Made by a program: the position numbers and the translations under genes. Of a DNA stretch of 64,000 nucleotides, positions 10,446-19,171 are shown in pieces. The stretch lies in NCBI GenBank assembly GCA_965208125.1, contig OZ242320.1, positions 1,568,001-1,632,000 of the forward strand. Direction: 5' to 3'. The number at the start of each line of letters is the position of its first letter. The first letter of the stretch is position 1. Source of the DNA: Candidatus Latescibacterota bacterium. GTDB lineage: Bacteria; Latescibacterota; UBA2968. The notes under the pieces were generated by a model. The model did no database searches. It saw only the letters and a program-made list of their open reading frames with translations, and had not been told where the DNA came from.

Positions 10446-12065
10446 ATGCTGCGAAACTATGTTCTACTCGTGATGACATTCATAACATTTGGACAGGCAG
10501 ACGCGGGATTGCTACCAGAAACCCCCAGTCCTCAAGGTGGGGATCTCACCGGTTCCTGGGTAGCCAGGAAATTCGAACTGAACGCTTATGTCCCGGCTGC
10601 GCTCGTGGAAGCAGTAAAGCCTCTTACAGTTGAAGGCGAGATCAACGGCACACTGATTTTGGATTCAGATGGCAGTATTCAAGCGAACTACGAGACAGTA
10701 GCCAATGTCTCTGCGTTATTATGGGTTCTACTTACGGTCACTGTACACGATACGAGCCAATACACAGGCAATTACACCGTCATGTCCGATACACATGAGC
10801 TCATCATAACACGCGAAAATGAAGATCCACTCAATTATACGTACACGGCTACGGCGGATTCACTGCATATTATACGTCCGCTTCTTTTAGATGAATTATT
10901 GGCGTCATTACCCGAATCTGTAAGAGACCTGGCACTGAGTTCGCTTTCTCATCTCGTTCCGCCAGATGATCCTATCAGGTTCGTGATCAGTTTTGCAAAA
11001 TCGGCAGATATAGGGACATCGAGTGTGCTAACGGGTGATTTTAATGGGAATGGTGTGGTTAATATTTCCGATTTTTTACTGTTTGTAACTCACTTCGAGA
11101 CAAGTCGTGGCGATAGGACGTATAACGCCAGGTATGATCTGGACAGCAACGGCGTAATTGGATTCTCCGATTTTCTGATCTTTGTCAACAACTTTGGTAA
11201 AGAGGCATCTTCCCCTGGCGGTGTTGCAACGATCGTTGCCATTCCGGATGAGAATCTGCTCGCTGTTATCGAGAATAGTCTCGACAAGGCGGAGGGTACT
11301 CCGATCACCAGAGGTGACATGGTGGCCTTAACGAACCTTGAGGCACCAAACAATAATATTCGCGATCTAACCGGACTTGAGTTTGCAATTAACCTGACAA
11401 AGCTGTCTCTTTACAACAACAGCATATCGGACATCACACCCCTTTCAAGATTGAACAGTCTGGAATGGCTGGTTCTTTCCAGCAACAGCATATCGGACAT
11501 CACACCCCTTCTGGGATTGAACAGTCTGGAATGGCTGTATCTTTCCAACAACAGCGTATCGAACATCACACCCCTTTCAAGATTGAACAATCTGGAATGG
11601 CTGTTTCTCGAAAGCAACAGCATATCGGACATCACACCCCTTTCAGGATTCAACAATCTGGAAGGACTGTATCTTTACAACAACAGCATATCGGACATCA
11701 CATCCCTTTCGGGATTGAACAGTCTAAGATTGCTGGATCTTGAAAACAACAGCATATCGGACATCACATCCCTTTCAGGATTGAACAGTCTGGAAAGGCT
11801 ATCTCTTCACAGCAACAGCATATCGGACCTCGCGCCCCTGGTCGCAAATACGGGATTGGGTAGTGGGGATTGGGTTTATGTGAGAAATAACCCGTTAAAT
11901 GCTACATCAATCAACACGCACATTCCAGCACTTCAGAGCAGAGGGATTAATGTGAGCTTTGGCGCGTCGAAGCCCGCGGCAGGTGAGCAAGAACGAGACA
12001 TATTCCGTTCCTTTAGGGAGGAACTGGGGAGAGGCCCCTCTCCACCACCGGCAACATCACCCTGA
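10446..12065 (+). CDS. Secreted dockerin-like plus internalin-type leucine-rich-repeat protein
   Basis: Signal peptide; DFNGNGVVNISDF...DLDSNGVIGFSDF; IPDENL cap; 22-aa LRRs; 3' end overlaps the convergent kinase. Confidence 0.88.
   Translation: MLRNYVLLVMTFITFGQADAGLLPETPSPQGGDLTGSWVARKFELNAYVPAALVEAVKPLTVEGEINGTLILDSDGSIQANYETVANVSALLWVLLTVTVHDTSQYTGNYTVMSDTHELIITRENEDPLNYTYTATADSLHIIRPLLLDELLASLPESVRDLALSSLSHLVPPDDPIRFVISFAKSADIGTSSVLTGDFNGNGVVNISDFLLFVTHFETSRGDRTYNARYDLDSNGVIGFSDFLIFVNNFGKEASSPGGVATIVAIPDENLLAVIENSLDKAEGTPITRGDMVALTNLEAPNNNIRDLTGLEFAINLTKLSLYNNSISDITPLSRLNSLEWLVLSSNSISDITPLLGLNSLEWLYLSNNSVSNITPLSRLNNLEWLFLESNSISDITPLSGFNNLEGLYLYNNSISDITSLSGLNSLRLLDLENNSISDITSLSGLNSLERLSLHSNSISDLAPLVANTGLGSGDWVYVRNNPLNATSINTHIPALQSRGINVSFGASKPAAGEQERDIFRSFREELGRGPSPPPATSP
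11390..11850 (+). repeat. About seven 66-bp LRR-coding tandem repeats
   Basis: CAACAGCATATCGGACATCACA recurs with a 66-bp period; unit LxxLxLxxNSISDITxLSxL. Confidence 0.9.
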
Positions 12066-15000
12066 ACGTCGTGCCCACGCCCTGCTCGCTCTCCACCGCG
12101 ATCTCCCCATCGTGATTGCGAACAATGGCATAAATAATCGACAACCCCAAACCCGTACCCCGGTCTGCATCCTTAGTCGTAAAAAAAGGCTCAAAAAGAC
12201 GCTGCCGGATCGCCTCATCCATTCCAACCCCATTATCCTCCACCTCGACAACAACCGCATCGTCCTCACCCCGCGTTCTGATCCAGACCTGCTTATCATA
12301 CCCCGCCCCCTCCATCTCCGCCCGCTCATCCACTGCATCCCGGGCATTAGACAGCAAATTGAGAACCACCTGCTCAAGAGGATGCGGATGTCCCCAGACC
12401 TCTGGGAGCGCGTCAGAAAGATCCAGCCAGAGATCAATCCCGTGCCTTTCAAGCTGCGAACCCATCAACTTCAGACTGCTCTGTATCACCTCATTCACAA
12501 CCATCGCCTGGCGTGGCTCCTCGGACACATCGCGCGAAAACACACGCAAATGATCGACAGTACCTGCCATCCGACCAACCACACCCCGAACATCCTCCAT
12601 CATCTCCCTCAACTCGTCCGTCTCAAGTGGCATACCCTCCATCAGCCGCAGGGAAATATCTCCAGCAGTTGTCTCAACGGCGGTCAGCGGCTGGTTGAGC
12701 TCGTGTGCCACACCCGCAACCATCTGCCCCAGCGACACCAGACGTGCGGACTGCAAAAGCTGCGTCTCATTAGCAGCTGCAAGATCTTCATTCGCCTTCC
12801 GCAATTTCCGATCCCGAACAATAATCCGCGAAATCAGATAACCCGTAAGAATCACAAACCCCAGGATCAACCCGATAAACCACAGACGGCGCCACACCAG
12901 CGGAACAACATTGAACGACATCGCAGACGGTATGGGATCTTCATTAAACGCCAGATCGCGCGCTTTAACCTCCAGCGTATGCGTCCCCACATCCAGACCC
13001 TCAAAGGATAGGACCGTATCCCCGCCATAAGGCGACCACGCCCCACCATTCAAACGGTGGGCGTATTGCAGATCTTCGCGCAATGTACTTCGCCAGGCGT
13101 CTATCCCTGTCCACGCGAAAGTTATCTTTTCACCTTCAGAGACTTCATCCTGAACAATAGTCATCACGGTTTCAGGTGGATCTGTCTCTGGCACATATCG
13201 AATCGTACGCAGCGTACAGGACGCCACAACGCCCTCGGATTCTGACCGTTTGTGCCAGGCGCCTGTATCAGATACAAAATTGAGCCAGAGTGCTCCGTCT
13301 CCAGACTGGAGAATCGGATCATGGAACTCTGTGTGCGGAAGTCCGGAAGGTAAAGCCTGTGGCAACCATGCGCGCCCATCAAACCGGCTAACACCCCCTG
13401 CCGTCCCCACCCAGATCGCGCCATCCCGATCCTGAAAAATACTTCGCACCTCATTATCCGCCAGCCCATCGCCATAATCGAACTGCTGCCACGCCGTCCC
13501 ATCATACCGAAACACCCCATAAATTCGGGACCCCAACCACAGGTCCCCCTGAGTATAAACAGCATCAATAAAACCTCTGGTCAACTCCTCTGGTCCAGTA
13601 AATTGTACCTCTCGCACCCCATCAAAACCGAACAGCCTTCCGCCAAACCACAAAATCCCATCAGAACTCTGCCCGATCCCATAAGCATAACGCGTCATCT
13701 CCGGAGGAGTATAATGTGTCCATCTCACCCCATCAAAAACCACCACCCCACCGAGAAAGCCATCATATAACCACCAATCCACCGCCGCGGCAAACCACAG
13801 AGAACCGTCAAAAGCCTCATAAACCGCACGCGGATCAACACCCCAGGAAAGCTGGGGATGGCGATCCATAACCCATTCAGAACCATTCAACCGCGCTGTA
13901 GCGGCGACATACTCATGGCTACCCGCAGCCCACAACGCACCCTCTCGCGTCACAATCAACTTACCCGGCATATCCATCAAGCCATCCGCCACACCAAACC
14001 GCGTCCATCCCTGCGCATCACGACGCACAACACCGTTATCCTGCGAGATAAACCATTGCGCCCCATCGGGCGTATCGCACTGAAAAATGAGACCCTCATA
14101 AGTCTGCCAGTGCTTCCCACTCAAATCCAGACGCGCAGCTTCCTGTCCGCGGCCTATAATCCAGAGCGCGCCATCCGCCGCCTCGAAAAGTTCCATACGG
14201 TGCGACGGCAACGACACAACATCTTTCGAATCATAAACGCGCCACACACCATCCCTATAAGCAATCAAGCGACTACCACCAATCCAGAGCGTCCCATCCC
14301 GACTTTCTATGATAGACGTATAATGATGGTCGAGATCACCAACTTCAAGCACCTCCCACTTCTCGCCGTCAAACCGGTTGACACTTTTACTCTTATCGCC
14401 ATACACCACCCAAACGATACCGTCCTCTGTCACACACATCCTCGGATACACACCCTGATCGATCCCATCATCCCCACTAAAACGCTGATAACCCGATGCA
14501 AAATCAAAACGAATCAGATCGCCATCGTGCGTCCCAAACCAGATCGCCCCATTGGACCCTTCACACACATCATAAACCATCAACCTCCGATTGTCCAAAA
14601 CGCGATCTGGAACCACAACAAAAGTCACCGCATCGGATACCATCTCCCGAACACCTGTCGTATCCTCCGCAGCCACATACAACCTTACCCCATCTGGCGT
14701 CAACCTGAGCGCACCCCATTCCGTACCCACCCACAAACTCCCATCCTGTGCCTCCATCAAATCATAGGTATTCCATTCTCCCTCAGATGGAAATACCCAT
14801 TCCCACGCCCCATTCTCAAAACGACTAATACCCCGATCAGACCCCACATAAACACCGCCATCCCGGGCGACATAAAGCGCGTTGATCCGCGCCCCAACCA
14901 TCCCCTCATCAAACGGAAAGAGATGCCAACTTATCCCATCGTAGCGATAAATACCATCATCCGTCCCAAATAAAAAACTACCATCCCCATCCTCCACCAA

Positions 15001-15156
15001 ACACGACACGCCTTGCCCCTTCAACTCTGGAAAAGATCGCCAGCGCCAGGACTCATGCACAGGATCTGGATGACGAGGCGTAAAAGGCGTCGCCGCGAAA
15101 CACACACTCGCGCCCACAAGCATCAGAAGCATCAGACATTTTGTGCATTCAATCAT
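12013..15156 (-). CDS. Sensor histidine kinase with extracytoplasmic beta-propeller (Reg_prop/Y_Y_Y-like) domains
   Basis: Repeated DGxLWxGT, a TM helix, H-box GVAHELNQPL, NLLSNARDA, DNGVG, FFTTK, GTGLGL; exact start uncertain. Confidence 0.92.
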   Translation of the reverse strand: MIECTKCLMLLMLVGASVCFAATPFTPRHPDPVHESWRWRSFPELKGQGVSCLVEDGDGSFLFGTDDGIYRYDGISWHLFPFDEGMVGARINALYVARDGGVYVGSDRGISRFENGAWEWVFPSEGEWNTYDLMEAQDGSLWVGTEWGALRLTPDGVRLYVAAEDTTGVREMVSDAVTFVVVPDRVLDNRRLMVYDVCEGSNGAIWFGTHDGDLIRFDFASGYQRFSGDDGIDQGVYPRMCVTEDGIVWVVYGDKSKSVNRFDGEKWEVLEVGDLDHHYTSIIESRDGTLWIGGSRLIAYRDGVWRVYDSKDVVSLPSHRMELFEAADGALWIIGRGQEAARLDLSGKHWQTYEGLIFQCDTPDGAQWFISQDNGVVRRDAQGWTRFGVADGLMDMPGKLIVTREGALWAAGSHEYVAATARLNGSEWVMDRHPQLSWGVDPRAVYEAFDGSLWFAAAVDWWLYDGFLGGVVVFDGVRWTHYTPPEMTRYAYGIGQSSDGILWFGGRLFGFDGVREVQFTGPEELTRGFIDAVYTQGDLWLGSRIYGVFRYDGTAWQQFDYGDGLADNEVRSIFQDRDGAIWVGTAGGVSRFDGRAWLPQALPSGLPHTEFHDPILQSGDGALWLNFVSDTGAWHKRSESEGVVASCTLRTIRYVPETDPPETVMTIVQDEVSEGEKITFAWTGIDAWRSTLREDLQYAHRLNGGAWSPYGGDTVLSFEGLDVGTHTLEVKARDLAFNEDPIPSAMSFNVVPLVWRRLWFIGLILGFVILTGYLISRIIVRDRKLRKANEDLAAANETQLLQSARLVSLGQMVAGVAHELNQPLTAVETTAGDISLRLMEGMPLETDELREMMEDVRGVVGRMAGTVDHLRVFSRDVSEEPRQAMVVNEVIQSSLKLMGSQLERHGIDLWLDLSDALPEVWGHPHPLEQVVLNLLSNARDAVDERAEMEGAGYDKQVWIRTRGEDDAVVVEVEDNGVGMDEAIRQRLFEPFFTTKDADRGTGLGLSIIYAIVRNHDGEIAVESEQGVGTTFRVMLPVVERGLSPVPP

Positions 15157-15397
15157 ACTCAATCCATCCATAAAAAAAGCGGCACTGGCGATAAATATCA
15201 CCAGCACCGCTATACACTGTCAGCGACTCATCGTGCTCCATGCATGTAATGGGTTTCCTGTACTTAAGCATTTGCCAACGACAAGTCTGTTGACTATACC
15301 CTGATTGGACATGGCAGTGTTGCCCAGCGCTTCAAAGTTCAGCGAGCGCGGTGAGACCTCCTCTCGGCTCCCAGATACCGTTGGTAGCGGTAGATCA

Positions 15398-17698
15398 TCA
15401 ATCGTTGTCCTCAACAGTCACGCTCGCCGAGAATGGACTACCCAATAAATTGTCATCACTGTCTTTCCATTGCGCGGTCAGGGTGACCACACTATCAGGC
15501 TCATCTACATCATCATCTATGGTCTTGATCGTAAGCGTGGTGGCGTTCTGAGTTCCACTAACCAGCACTTCGCCGCTCATGACATCGCCAGATTCGTCGA
15601 TACCTATACTTAGATTTCCCTGGGGTAAAGTAATCGTACTCGGGGAAATAATCGTAAAGGTCACATCCGTCCCTTCCGTCACAGGGGTAGTACCGGCAGA
15701 AATTGTCGTCTCTGAGAGATCGTTGTCTTGAACCGTCACACTCGCAGAAGAAGAACTACCCACTGCATAACCCGTACCAGCCTCCACTTCCGCAGTCACG
15801 CTGCTATTGATCTCACCTACATTATCATCGTCCGTATTGACCGTCAGCGTGGCAGTGGATTCGTTGGCGTTGATGGTCACCGATGAGGGTGCTGCCCCAC
15901 TGATCACAGCGCCATCCTCGGTCACGCTCACACTCACGGTTATTGCTGTTGTCGGAGCAGGGGATGCTGTAATCGTGAACGTCGCTGCCGTGCCCTCAGT
16001 CACAGGGGTAGTACCGGCAGAGATCGTCACTTGTGGGTGTTCGTTGTCGCTCACGGTCACACTCGCAGAAGAAGAACTACCCACATTATAACCTGTGCCA
16101 GTCGCCACTTGCGCGGTCACGATGCTATTGTTCTCACCTACATTATCATCGTCCGTATTAACCGTCAGCGTAGCAGTGGTCGCGTTGGCGTTGATGGTCA
16201 CCGATGAAGGTGCTGTACCACTGATCACAGCGCCATCCTCACTGACGCTCACATTCACTGTCAATGGGGAGGCTGGCGCAGGGGAAGCCGTGATTGTGAA
16301 CGTCGCTGCCGTACCCTCGGTCACAGGAGTAGTACCCGCAGAGATCGTCACTTGTGGGTGTTCGTTGTCGCTCACGGTCACACTCGCAGAGGAAGGACTA
16401 CCCACGGTATAACCTGTTCCGGTCTGCACTTCCGCCGTCACGATGCTATTGTTCTCACCTACATTATCATTATCCGTATTGACCCTCAGCGTGGCTGCGG
16501 ACTCGTTGGCGTCGATGGTCACCGATGAGGGTGCTGCCCCACTGATCACATCGCCATCCTCACTGACGTTCACATTCACCGTCAATGGGGAAGCTGACCG
16601 AGGGAACGCCGCGATTACAAAAACCGCTACCCTACCCTCAGTCACAGGTCCGCTAAGAGCTCGGATCGTCACCCTTGGGAGATCGTTATCCTCAACCGTC
16701 ACACTCGCAGAAGATGAACTGCCCACGGTATAACCTGTTCCGGTCTGCACTTCCGCCGTCACCACACTGTTAGACTCATCTGTCTTATCATTATCCGTAT
16801 TAACCGTCAGCGTAGCAGTGGACTCGTTGGCGTTGATGGTCACCGATGAGGGTGCTGTCCCACTGATCACATCGCCATCCTCGGTCACGCTCACACTCAC
16901 GGTTATTGCTGAGGTTGGCGCAGAGGATGCTGTGATCGTGAACGTCGCTGCCGTACCCTCCGTCACAGGGGTAGTACCCGCAGAGATCGTCACCTGTGGG
17001 GTCACCTGCTGTTGTCCGGTCGGCGGTGGGGGCGCAGGATCGTCATTATCCTCAACCGTCACACTCGCAGAGGAGGAACTGCCCACTGTATAGCCTGTCC
17101 CACTCTCCACTTCCGCTGTCACCACACTATTAGACTCATCTGCATCATCATCGTCCGTATTGACCGTCAGCGTAGCAGTGGACTCGTTGGCGTCGATGGT
17201 CACTGTCGAAGACGGCGTCCCACTGATCACATCGCCATCCTCGGTCACGCTCACACTCACGGTTATTGCTGAGGTCGGCGCAGAGGATGCCGTAATTGTA
17301 AACGTCGCTGACGTACCTTCCGTCACAGGTGAAGTACCCGCTGAAATTGTCACCTGTGGGGTCTCCTGTGGGGTCTCCTGCTGTTGCGAGGGCGAATCGT
17401 CGATGTTCACTGTCTTGCCCCAATTGGAAATCAAGATCCTGAGATCCAATTGGTTGATGACCCCATCGCCGTGCAGATCCAACTCCTCCTGCCAATTTGG
17501 TCCACCTGCTCGCGTTCCCCAATTGGAGATAAGGAGTCTTAAGTCCAATTCATCGACAATCCCATCGTCGTTAAAGTCCGAAGATGGCGGACTACTATCC
17601 TGTGAAAAAAGCGACAAAGGAGCAATCAAGAGCAGAAGGCTCAGAAAACTGGCGATACGGAGCGTGAAGTTGGGATACGAATTACGACTAATCATCAT
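15398..17698 (-). CDS. Secreted adhesin-like protein: dockerin-like module plus six Calx-beta-like repeats
   Basis: GGAG RBS and ATG 17698; signal peptide; DFNDDGIVDELDL...DLHGDGVINQLDL; six ~107-aa units PQVTISAGTTPVTEG...ASVTVxDND. Confidence 0.85.
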   Translation of the reverse strand: MMISRNSYPNFTLRIASFLSLLLLIAPLSLFSQDSSPPSSDFNDDGIVDELDLRLLISNWGTRAGGPNWQEELDLHGDGVINQLDLRILISNWGKTVNIDDSPSQQQETPQETPQVTISAGTSPVTEGTSATFTITASSAPTSAITVSVSVTEDGDVISGTPSSTVTIDANESTATLTVNTDDDDADESNSVVTAEVESGTGYTVGSSSSASVTVEDNDDPAPPPPTGQQQVTPQVTISAGTTPVTEGTAATFTITASSAPTSAITVSVSVTEDGDVISGTAPSSVTINANESTATLTVNTDNDKTDESNSVVTAEVQTGTGYTVGSSSSASVTVEDNDLPRVTIRALSGPVTEGRVAVFVIAAFPRSASPLTVNVNVSEDGDVISGAAPSSVTIDANESAATLRVNTDNDNVGENNSIVTAEVQTGTGYTVGSPSSASVTVSDNEHPQVTISAGTTPVTEGTAATFTITASPAPASPLTVNVSVSEDGAVISGTAPSSVTINANATTATLTVNTDDDNVGENNSIVTAQVATGTGYNVGSSSSASVTVSDNEHPQVTISAGTTPVTEGTAATFTITASPAPTTAITVSVSVTEDGAVISGAAPSSVTINANESTATLTVNTDDDNVGEINSSVTAEVEAGTGYAVGSSSSASVTVQDNDLSETTISAGTTPVTEGTDVTFTIISPSTITLPQGNLSIGIDESGDVMSGEVLVSGTQNATTLTIKTIDDDVDEPDSVVTLTAQWKDSDDNLLGSPFSASVTVEDND

Positions 17699-17783
17699 TT
17701 TTCTCCATAGACATATATGCAAACGTTCTCAGTTAGGGTGAAAGATCGACGGCAAATAAGCCGAGAATTAACTCAATAACACC

Positions 17784-17944
17784 TAATTATACTTATACGG
17801 ATATAAGTTGCTTCGGCTATACTGAGAAGCAGATCAACCTTTTGCTTTGTTCTTTTTTAACGCTTAAATGGTTTCGTTTGTTGCGCGGTCACTGCCTCGC
17901 TAAACGTTTGTATTTGACAAAATAATTCCGTATAAGTATAATTA
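17784..17944. repeat. Perfect 18-bp inverted repeats flanking a 125-bp segment (candidate invertible element)
   Basis: TAATTATACTTATACGGA (17784-17801) and its reverse complement TCCGTATAAGTATAATTA (17927-17944). Confidence 0.9.
17914..17942 (+). promoter_or_regulatory. Consensus sigma70 promoter facing the recombinase
   Basis: TTGACA (17914-17919), 17 bp, TATAAT (17937-17942). Confidence 0.85.
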
Positions 17945-18043
17945 TATGGATTAAAATATCAGATTACCGAGCACAAAGCCGACAGCTTAACCCTCCGTAT
18001 AACCTGACAGTTAGCCACAGTCGAGCAGCTCAGGAGCGACTCT

Positions 18044-18982
18044 ATGCTACGAAATATCTCCCTACAATCTGCCCTCGACACCACGCCCGCGTCAATATCC
18101 ATCGACATGGCCCGATTGATGCAGGCCAGCATCGCGCCCAACACGGCGAAGGCGTACCACACTGCTCTTGACAAGCTGACCAAATATTTGAACGGGCGGC
18201 CACCAACCGACGGGACACTGGCCGACTACTTAGCCCACTTATATGCCAGAGGACTGGCGCCCGCTTCTATCGCCTTAGTGGTGCAAGCCATCCGCTTTTG
18301 GGAAAAAATAGAAGGCCGTCCATCGAGTGTTGGCCCGTTGACGACTCGCACCCTGGCCGGAATCCGCCGCGAAGGTCGAGGACGAGGCCGCGGCCAGGTA
18401 ACTGGATTGACCCGAGAGACGGTCAAACTCATGGCTCATAACGCCACCAAGACCGGCACCCTGGCCGGATTGAGAGACGCCGCCCTGTTGCGCGTGATGA
18501 GCGACGCCCTGTTGAGGATCGGCGAGGCTGTAGCCATCGACTGCGAGCACATCACGACCGAAGCCGACGGTACCGGACGACTTGAGATCCATCAGAGCAA
18601 AACCGACCAGAATGGGAAAGGCACGAGCCTCTACTTGACCACCCGCACCATTGATGCCATCCGCCAGTTGCAGGCCCGCGCTGGCTACAAGACCGGCCCT
18701 CTCTTTCGTCGGATGTTAAAGGGCGACCACATGAGCAACAACCGCTTGACAGTCGATGGTGCGCGATTAGCCATCAAAGCGTCCGCAAAGCAAGCCGGTA
18801 TTGCGGGCGTAAGCGGCCACAGCCTCCGAATTGGAACTGCCCAGGAGCTTGCCCAGCGCGGCGCTACCCTGGTCGAGTTGCAGAACGCCGGCCGCTGGAC
18901 AGATAGCCAGATGCCAGCCCACTATACCCGCAATCAGGCCGCAGGTAAGGGAGCCGTGGCCCGCTTGCTGCGAGATGACTAA
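18044..18982 (+). CDS. Cre-like tyrosine recombinase
   Basis: AGGAG RBS; full catalytic set: R (LLRIGE), K (SKTDQ), HxxR (GHSLR), W (AGRW), Y (HYTR); N-terminal SAM-like APNTAKAY. Confidence 0.93.
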   Translation: MLRNISLQSALDTTPASISIDMARLMQASIAPNTAKAYHTALDKLTKYLNGRPPTDGTLADYLAHLYARGLAPASIALVVQAIRFWEKIEGRPSSVGPLTTRTLAGIRREGRGRGRGQVTGLTRETVKLMAHNATKTGTLAGLRDAALLRVMSDALLRIGEAVAIDCEHITTEADGTGRLEIHQSKTDQNGKGTSLYLTTRTIDAIRQLQARAGYKTGPLFRRMLKGDHMSNNRLTVDGARLAIKASAKQAGIAGVSGHSLRIGTAQELAQRGATLVELQNAGRWTDSQMPAHYTRNQAAGKGAVARLLRDD

Positions 18983-19100
18983 GAGAGATAGAGACGTTAT
19001 GAGTGCCCGACGACCTCTCTTGTCAGTAGTAAATTTAAGACGCAGGACTTTCTGCAAAATATCTCCTCAAAAACGGAATATGAAAAATTTTAACAACCAT

Positions 19101-19127
19101 TAAAACTTTTTCCCTCAACCAAACGTC
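19101..19127 (+). promoter_or_regulatory. Possible ECF-type autoregulatory promoter
   Basis: TAAAAC, 17 bp, CGTC upstream of the ECF sigma gene. Confidence 0.35.
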
Positions 19128-19171
19128 TTGAAAGATGAACAACACACAGAACCCCAAACACGGTCCACCGA

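Follow-up and report, generated by a model that had tools for sequence, protein, structure and literature searches.

In Escherichia coli, the tyrosine recombinase genes of the fimS system (FimB/FimE) adjoin a promoter segment bounded by inverted repeats, which switches a surface structure. The fim switch holds a whole promoter within ~314 bp between 9-bp repeats; its recombinases have promoters of their own, and recombinase expression depends partly on the orientation of the switch. Phage P1 carries one loxP, used for cyclisation and dimer resolution. In Bacteroides, promoter segments that precede genes for outer-surface proteins, SusC-like receptors among them, are inverted by local tyrosine recombinases. 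Invertible promoters of Bacteroides with such a locally encoded enzyme were reportedly the subject of work by Weinacht et al. in 2004. The present analysis concerns a 64,000-nucleotide stretch of a Candidatus Latescibacterota bacterium genome (contig OZ242320.1, positions 1,568,001 to 1,632,000; henceforth the window), in which a 161-bp element at 17784-17944, situated between the divergent genes of a secreted repeat adhesin and a Cre-like tyrosine recombinase, is probably an invertible split promoter run by the adjacent recombinase. It is regarded as a probable on/off switch because relatives of the locus share its layout and one copy among them is flipped.

As in fimS, a tyrosine recombinase gene lies beside a short promoter segment with inverted repeats; unlike fimS, the enzyme of the window is Cre-like, a -10 box lies in both repeats, only the -35 would move and the moving promoter would be the recombinase's own. 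A likeness to the Bacteroides inversions is that a paralogous switch in the genus of the window organism also faces a SusC-like operon, whereas the recombinase lineage (with only Cre and Tre as relatives in the PDB), the phylum, the habitat and the sigma-70-type split promoter are different. The fold family, the catalytic pattern with Trp and Tyr, and a site just upstream of the recombinase gene are common to the window locus and Cre/loxP of P1, as may be the proposed 13-8-13 site plan (perfect in a Latescibacterota paralogue type described below and matched at 9/13 in the right site of the window); however, the enzymes share 27% identity, and the window has two inverted sites around a promoter part on the chromosome. 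From fimS and the Bacteroides inversions, which it resembles in function, the window system would thus differ in its Cre-like lineage, the lox-like site plan, the split promoter and the movement of the recombinase's own promoter. The interest of the system lies mainly in the cross-phylum family and the classes of genes controlled. In the one literature collection searched, nothing turned up on invertible promoters in sponge symbionts. The PhaseFinder/DeepInverton invertons (PMC11602134) are likewise inverted-repeat-bounded promoters beside genes for extracellular functions; the main text of that source is without the words sponge, Poribacteria and Latescibacter, and its supplements may list predictions in these phyla.

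Architecture of the candidate switch

The features on which the argument depends are as follows (positions are those of the window).

17784-17801, plus strand: left inverted repeat, 18 bp, TAATTATACTTATACGGA (sequence reading and repeat finder)
17802-17926, without strand: segment predicted to invert, 125 bp between the repeats (sequence reading)
17927-17944, minus strand: right inverted repeat, 18 bp, exact reverse complement of 17784-17801
17914-17919, plus strand: -35 hexamer TTGACA, located within the segment at a distance of 7 bp from the right repeat
17937-17942: rightward TATAAT (-10) in the right repeat
17791-17786, minus strand: leftward TATAAT in the left repeat
15398-17698, minus strand: secreted repeat adhesin gene, 766 amino acids (open reading frame; ATG start with GGAG upstream)
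18044-18982, plus strand: Cre-like tyrosine recombinase gene, 312 amino acids (Pfam Phage_integrase and alignment to Cre)

The original prediction, made from the letters of the window, had described perfect 18-bp inverted repeats around a 125-bp segment between divergent genes, and these features were confirmed. The same holds for the outward-pointing TATAAT within each repeat, for the dyad symmetry of the left site (ACTTATA-CGGA-TATAAGT at 17791-17808) and, by sequence reading, for TTGACA at 17 bp from the right-hand -10 and GAAGCA on the adhesin side. With its 17-bp spacer and TATAAT, the TTGACA at 17914-17919 forms the sole 12/12 promoter match on both strands of 17500-18200; GAAGCA occupies the -35 position (17814-17809) for the leftward TATAAT of the left repeat. 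The further claim that inversion would rebuild TTGACA-N17-TATAAT towards the adhesin follows by construction from the perfect repeat. According to the repeat finder, the pair 17784-17801 / 17927-17944 extends to 27 bp at 85%. As in invertons, inverted repeats surround promoter elements and a recombinase gene lies nearby.

Three rival explanations have to be weighed, in the order of operator-only sites, a mobile module, and a chance or structural repeat. The last of these, in which the repeat is a chance or structural feature (a cruciform, or the site of an unrelated regulator) of an AT-rich intergenic region and is unlinked to the recombinase, is extremely improbable. An AT-rich region (GC 0.375-0.40) with TA-rich hexamers does favour short palindromes; nevertheless, 0.01 matches to the 18-mer at up to 3 mismatches are expected by chance in the window, where three were seen. 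The third match, at 17933-17950 with 3 mismatches, is the internal dyad of the right site, so that the right site is itself near-palindromic. Across the whole 5,747,750-bp genome, the 18-bp repeat has two copies only at up to 2 mismatches, both at this locus, which also speaks against chance, as do its conservation with a matched change in a sister species (G006, see below) and the fact that the same architecture travels with homologous recombinases having unrelated repeat sequences. A miniature inverted-repeat transposable element or insertion sequence element was considered separately and ruled out, since a terminal repeat with two copies in 5.75 Mb does not fit a multi-copy element end.

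Two copies of an arm motif (ATACGGA / TCCGTAT, at 17655-17661 and 17994-18000) lie outside the switch in nested inverted orientation and were considered as accessory sites. This idea was dropped because the right-hand copy (17994-18000) has no counterpart in G006 and is changed in a second organism (run X5, below); both copies are probably due to chance.

The Cre-like recombinase

The recombinase scores 54.2 bits against Pfam PF00589 (Phage_integrase; cut-off 27.1). In an alignment to Cre, its residues R158, K186, H259, R262, W285 and Y294 fall on the catalytic positions, and all six are invariant among seven homologues. Its 17 PDB matches at E <= 0.001 consist exclusively of Cre and of Tre, an engineered variant derived from Cre, and an alignment covering 94% of the protein gives 27% identity to P1/P7 Cre. 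Among 25 phage matches, the 10 listed are Cre of P1/P7-type phages (~27% identity), while the closest plasmid-borne relatives are unnamed integrases with up to 32.5% identity. The earlier designation of the enzyme as Cre-like is upheld by these matches and by the Trp that replaces the second His, and membership in the Cre-like subgroup of tyrosine recombinases is supported by sequence comparison. The NCBIfam Xer models gave sub-threshold matches only, far below their cut-offs. An integron integrase was likewise rejected: NF040815, the sole integron-integrase model at E <= 0.01, reached 56 bits against a cut-off of 220.

Outside the window, G000:C1:1719093-1719281 of the same genome encodes a 63-residue fragment that shares 46% identity with the recombinase C-terminus and is probably the remnant of a second family member.

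Homologous loci and an inverted copy

A profile of seven homologues retrieved 272 relatives from a collection of species-representative genomes, and the best 80 of the 272 loci were kept. The relatives are found in metagenome-assembled genomes of Poribacteria, Latescibacterota, Acidobacteriota, Gammaproteobacteria, Acidimicrobiia and others; most of the bacteria sharing the switch layout bear names as sponge symbionts. Repeats were sought over 900 bp ahead of the recombinase gene in the 76 loci with enough flank (the window locus is not among the 76), with 380 local shuffles as control, in which the maximum score was 13. A repeat pair scoring at least 14 was present in 15/76 loci and a further 12 have the Poribacteria motif at the same position, giving at least 27/76 homologous loci (from Poribacteria, Latescibacterota and one Bryobacterales genome) with an inverted-repeat pair just upstream of the recombinase. 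Loci L077 and L100 are also above the shuffle control; the others belong to the following types.

Poribacteria type, 18 loci: repeat ...TATTCTA / TAGAATA..., spacing ~290 bp
Latescibacterota paralogue type, 3 loci in the scan (L034-L036) and, in addition, L007: perfect 13-8-13 proximal palindrome with an inverted distal partner, ~260 bp
Bryobacterales type, 3 copies: 17-bp repeats, spacing 152 bp
Window type, 1 locus in the scan (L028, matching G006) and, in addition, the window locus: spacing 125 bp in the window and 177 bp in G006

In the Poribacteria type, TTGACA lies 17-18 nt upstream of the TAGAAT that starts the right repeat in 18/18 loci, and the left repeat has the same TAGAAT in leftward orientation, for which no -35 is suitably spaced. 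A leftward TTGACA inside the segment, found in 7/18 of these loci, was considered as a left promoter and rejected, since its distance to the leftward TAGAAT (24 nt in L099, for example) is too great. In the Bryobacterales copies L098 and L050, TTGACA abuts the right repeat and TAGAAT follows just beyond. As the Poribacteria and Bryobacterales types share it, the combination of two -10 boxes with a single movable -35 is taken as a family trait. Thus, the layout expected from the original prediction (a repeat pair, a -35 in the segment and a -10 in the repeat) recurs at homologous loci of other phyla.

The Bryobacterales genome provides the inverted case. It holds three intact copies (L098, L060 and L050; 92-95% identical) of a ~4.5-kb repeat that comprises the switch, the recombinase and an ankyrin-repeat gene. 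Copies L098 and L050 align collinearly; in L060, both flanks are collinear and the 186-bp repeat-bounded stretch aligns only when reverse-complemented, at 96-97% identity. The TTGACA of L060 faces left, towards a divergent ankyrin-repeat gene (308 amino acids) that begins at a distance of 7 bp from the left repeat. Both orientations therefore exist among homologous systems, L060 being inverted exactly at its repeats. A fourth copy (L112) is decayed (~80% identity), has a partly deleted recombinase and is collinear. Among 101 genomes sampled from the order, the switch was found in one, namely the source genome itself, with no further orientation variants.

The nearest large left-hand open reading frame is divergent in 27/27 switch-bearing loci. 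Scans of 22 proteins from 21 loci together with L034 and L098 were used for classification, and L050, L060, L036 and L089 were assigned by likeness, with the following outcome.

7 loci: leucine-rich repeat (LRR) proteins, many with Big_12 or Por_Secre_tail
3 loci: ankyrin proteins (three copies of one element)
3 loci: SusC-like receptors
2 loci: Big_1/invasin-like proteins
1 locus: cadherin/CARDB protein
1 locus: LDL-receptor-B protein with dockerin
1 locus (G006): fn3/cadherin/dockerin protein
2 loci: di-haem oxidoreductases
2 loci: weak YtkA-like matches
5 loci: other or no matches, one a transposase

The left-hand gene is accordingly a surface or eukaryote-like repeat protein in 18/27 loci (15 in repeat-protein classes and 3 SusC-like), and the dockerin/Ig-repeat adhesin of the window fits this pattern.

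Relatives in the genus of the window organism also carry a paralogous recombinase of ~47% identity (L005/L034, L007, L008/L036 and L018/L035, in G014, G007, G004 and G006, respectively). Here, a perfect 13-8-13 lox-like site lies ~110 bp upstream of the start codon, its inverted partner is ~260 bp further left, and a complete TTGACA-17-TAAATT directed to the left-hand operon lies inside the segment in 4/4 loci; this promoter is not split. The operon facing the paralogous switch encodes a SusC-like receptor, a 718-amino-acid protein and a PorP/SprF-like protein. In a further genome (G015), a DDE transposase gene (L026:8849-9973) lies between the SusC-like operon and the paralogous recombinase, and the distal half of the switch is replaced.

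The scatter of the family over many phyla, with several copies per genome, raises the alternative that switch and recombinase form a small mobile module with sites used for integration, excision or copy-out, the promoter effects being incidental. Two loci of one Poribacteria genome (L059 and L069) are in keeping with this, being 97% identical over only ~1.45 kb (switch and recombinase) with unrelated flanks. So is the variation between the histidine kinase and sigma factor genes that enclose the window locus. Comparison of window 12013-19171 with L121-L138 shows this stretch to be hypervariable among genomes of the genus: the recombinase occurs in the window genome (G000) and in G006, which has a 3.8-kb insert and ~10 kb of adhesin genes here besides the switch, and is absent in G013, with nothing between the two genes, and in G005, with an adhesin orthologue followed by a 237-amino-acid membrane-protein-like open reading frame and neither switch nor recombinase. 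Against this stand four points: both sites lie on one side of the recombinase gene and are inverted, which implies inversion instead of excision of that gene; the repeat is unique in the window genome, so that a second att-like partner is lacking; a viral collection gave 87 pattern matches, none of them a relative; and the conserved -35/-10 geometry and the divergent left gene in 27/27 loci point to regulation. A mobile module is, on balance, quite improbable as an explanation.

In the same Poribacteria genome, L069:1192-1550 is a 94% partial duplicate of the left repeat and most of the segment, 2.4 kb from a complete switch; this duplicate has no right repeat and no recombinase.

Putative recombination sites and the point of crossover

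Under a lox-like register, the two sites of the predicted invertible promoter would be arranged as follows.

17922-17955, without strand: proposed proximal (right) site, lox-like 13-8-13, with arm 17922-17934, core AGTATAAT at 17935-17942 and arm 17943-17955 (from the dyad match, with the arm count by reading)
17773-17806, without strand: proposed distal (left) site, with degenerate outer arm 17773-17785, 8-bp core ATTATACT at 17786-17793 and good inner arm 17794-17806 (register deduced from the internal dyad on the right, the paired core substitution of G006 and homologous loci)

The arms of the right site agree at 9/13 positions. Tyrosine recombinases need identical crossover regions in both partner sites, as is established for Cre/lox. 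For each of the 18 Poribacteria-type loci, the left site was reverse-complemented and aligned to its right-hand partner. Columns 0-10 (TAGAATnnnnn, 11 nt) are identical between left and right in 18/18 loci, even as the five variable core columns take seven different values among them; the flanking columns diverge freely between left and right sites (column 11, for example, agrees in 4/18). The closely related loci L087 and L090, for instance, have near-identical left flanks and differ by one core base, which is altered in both sites. Furthermore, the Latescibacterota paralogue type has three matched core variants among four loci. Such matching of cores within a locus is what continued recombination, or selection for recombination competence, would produce.

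The window locus can be compared in the same way with G006, which holds the sole close recombinase orthologue in the genus (21 genomes; 93% amino-acid identity). The locus is syntenic, with kinase, adhesin genes, switch, recombinase and sigma factor; nucleotide homology (87%) restarts at 17780, 4 bp ahead of the left repeat, and the 5' region of the adhesin is diverged. The switch of G006 is collinear with the window orientation, has a segment longer by 52 bp (177 bp vs 125 bp), and keeps TTGACA-17-TATAGT and a 15-bp perfect repeat, TAACTATACTTATAC. The fourth repeat position differs in both arms (TAATTA in the window, TAACTA in G006), amounting to one matched core change between the two genomes; the conservation of the repeats with this double change supports the view that they behave as recombination sites.

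The original prediction had placed the crossover at ACGGA. This is unlikely and was not adopted because the right site of G006 reads ACAAA at that place; the 13-8-13 register would make ACGGA part of an arm. Matching between the repeats is preserved over AGTATAAT (window) and AGTATAGT (G006), and a crossover within AGTATAAT appears more likely than one in ACGGA. Since the window repeat is perfect over 18 bp, the inverted product is identical under either register.

Orientation at the window locus and the operator alternative

Inversion of the window locus was looked for in assembled contigs of the public runs X1, X3, X4 and X5. The contigs of X1, X3 and X4 (one sample, depth ~4-7) have the assembled orientation over 17504-18140 or 17624-18140 and match the window at every letter. 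That of X5 (a second organism, depth ~10) covers 17613-18140 with 19 differing letters, in the same orientation and with both 18-bp repeats unchanged. No strand-changing joint at the switch was found in the contigs of the four runs, where minority forms are invisible. The runs holding the window stretch include sponge metagenomes. Runs X1, X3 and X4 also contain a contig at 29-77x (the window organism being at ~4-7x) that matches 18054-18140 with 9 differences and diverges upstream; a more abundant organism in this sample appears to carry a related recombinase. A metagenome scan with the recombinase protein yielded 47 matching stretches and 1 relative, L108 (75% identity).

Several results weigh against an active switch at this locus. 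The inverted form was not seen in the contigs of the four runs, which drop minority forms, or in G006, and an all-against-all comparison of 82 upstream regions gave L060 as the only inverted case. The outer arm of the proposed left site agrees at 5/13 positions only and is degenerate; moreover, the inner end of the right repeat is decayed in G006 (AAA, compared with GGA in the window). No repeat pair was found, within the stretch searched, at the next closest recombinase orthologues, L029 (83%), L030 (77%) and L108 (75%). Finally, 22/23 split-promoter loci face the recombinase (the 18 of the Poribacteria type, L098, L050, the window and G006, as against L060). The last count fits poorly with the self-silencing toggle of the original prediction, since with a simple toggle of this kind one would expect flipped copies to build up. 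The excess of recombinase-facing loci might be due to counter-selection of flipped cells, to a second, weak promoter, or to autorepression by way of the proximal site that covers the -10.

These results are shared in part by the foremost rival, in which the repeats are recombinase binding sites that now act as operators only: the proximal site would autorepress, the distal one would be a relic or looping partner, and the segment would no longer invert. The proximal site does overlap the -10 box of the recombinase's own promoter, every source for the window locus has one orientation only, and the left outer arm is degenerate. Similarly, L029 retains only the homologous promoter and right site, without the left copy, and the single-site state may therefore be the older one. 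Nevertheless, operators need no core identity, yet the cores have changed in concert between G000 and G006 and are matched in 18/18 Poribacteria-type loci; a homologous system, L060, does invert; and autorepression and inversion can coexist. Operator-only sites are, on this evidence, unlikely, and the invertible split promoter is retained as the preferred reading.

Proposed mechanism and significance

In the preferred reading, each repeat would combine a crossover core with an outward-facing -10, and the single -35 would lie in the segment between them. In the assembled state, the promoter would drive the recombinase gene. Once the cores had recombined, the segment would be reversed and the same -35, at the same 17-bp spacing, would stand before the leftward -10, such that the flipped promoter would drive the secreted dockerin/Ig-repeat adhesin gene ~80 nt downstream, and the recombinase side would be left with GAAGCA at the -35 position. 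The outcome would be phase-variable display of the adhesin. We infer inversion of the window locus, a strand cut within AGTATAAT, transcription that follows the promoter boxes and phase-variable adhesin display.

A broader proposal is offered more tentatively, with its chances put at slightly below even. Horizontally spread Cre-like recombinases in sponge-associated bacteria of several phyla may run self-contained split-promoter switches that phase-vary neighbouring eukaryote-like or adhesin surface proteins (LRR, ankyrin, cadherin, LDL-receptor repeat and dockerin/Ig); the locus-specific cores may act like heterospecific lox sites and keep the switches of one genome apart. Within this family, the window locus would represent the Latescibacterota. 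Proposals on how sponge cells and symbionts recognise each other most often name eukaryote-like repeat proteins and adhesins as the mediating gene classes. If the proposal is true, symbiont populations would hedge between displaying and hiding such proteins. Apart from this, the split-promoter design would be compact and portable, with a -10 in both cores, one shared movable -35 and the recombinase's own promoter as the moving part, and the naturally diverse, matched cores could provide a ready set of orthogonal Cre-like recombinase/site pairs.

The adhesin and neighbouring genes

The adhesin consists of a signal peptide, an N-terminal dockerin-type module and approximately six tandem repeats of ~107 amino acids. 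Pfam reports Dockerin_1, PKD_4, LapA and Ig_3/I-set in the protein, and its repeats match LapA, PKD_4 and DUF5006. The earlier label "Calx-beta-like" was not borne out, as Pfam gave no Calx-beta match to the adhesin even at E <= 1; the repeat, which we take to resemble the Calx-beta pattern by eye, was not confirmed as such by Pfam. With regard to the start of the gene, previously set at TTG 17722, the ATG at 17698 behind GGAG is more likely. Pfam identifies the neighbours in the window as a Reg_prop histidine kinase and, on the opposite side, an extracytoplasmic function (ECF) sigma factor with its anti-sigma factor. The ~six 107-amino-acid repeats of the adhesin are near-identical, and at the nucleotide level they produce numerous off-diagonal matches in comparison with the G006 adhesin genes, suggesting that the adhesin repeats turn over rapidly.

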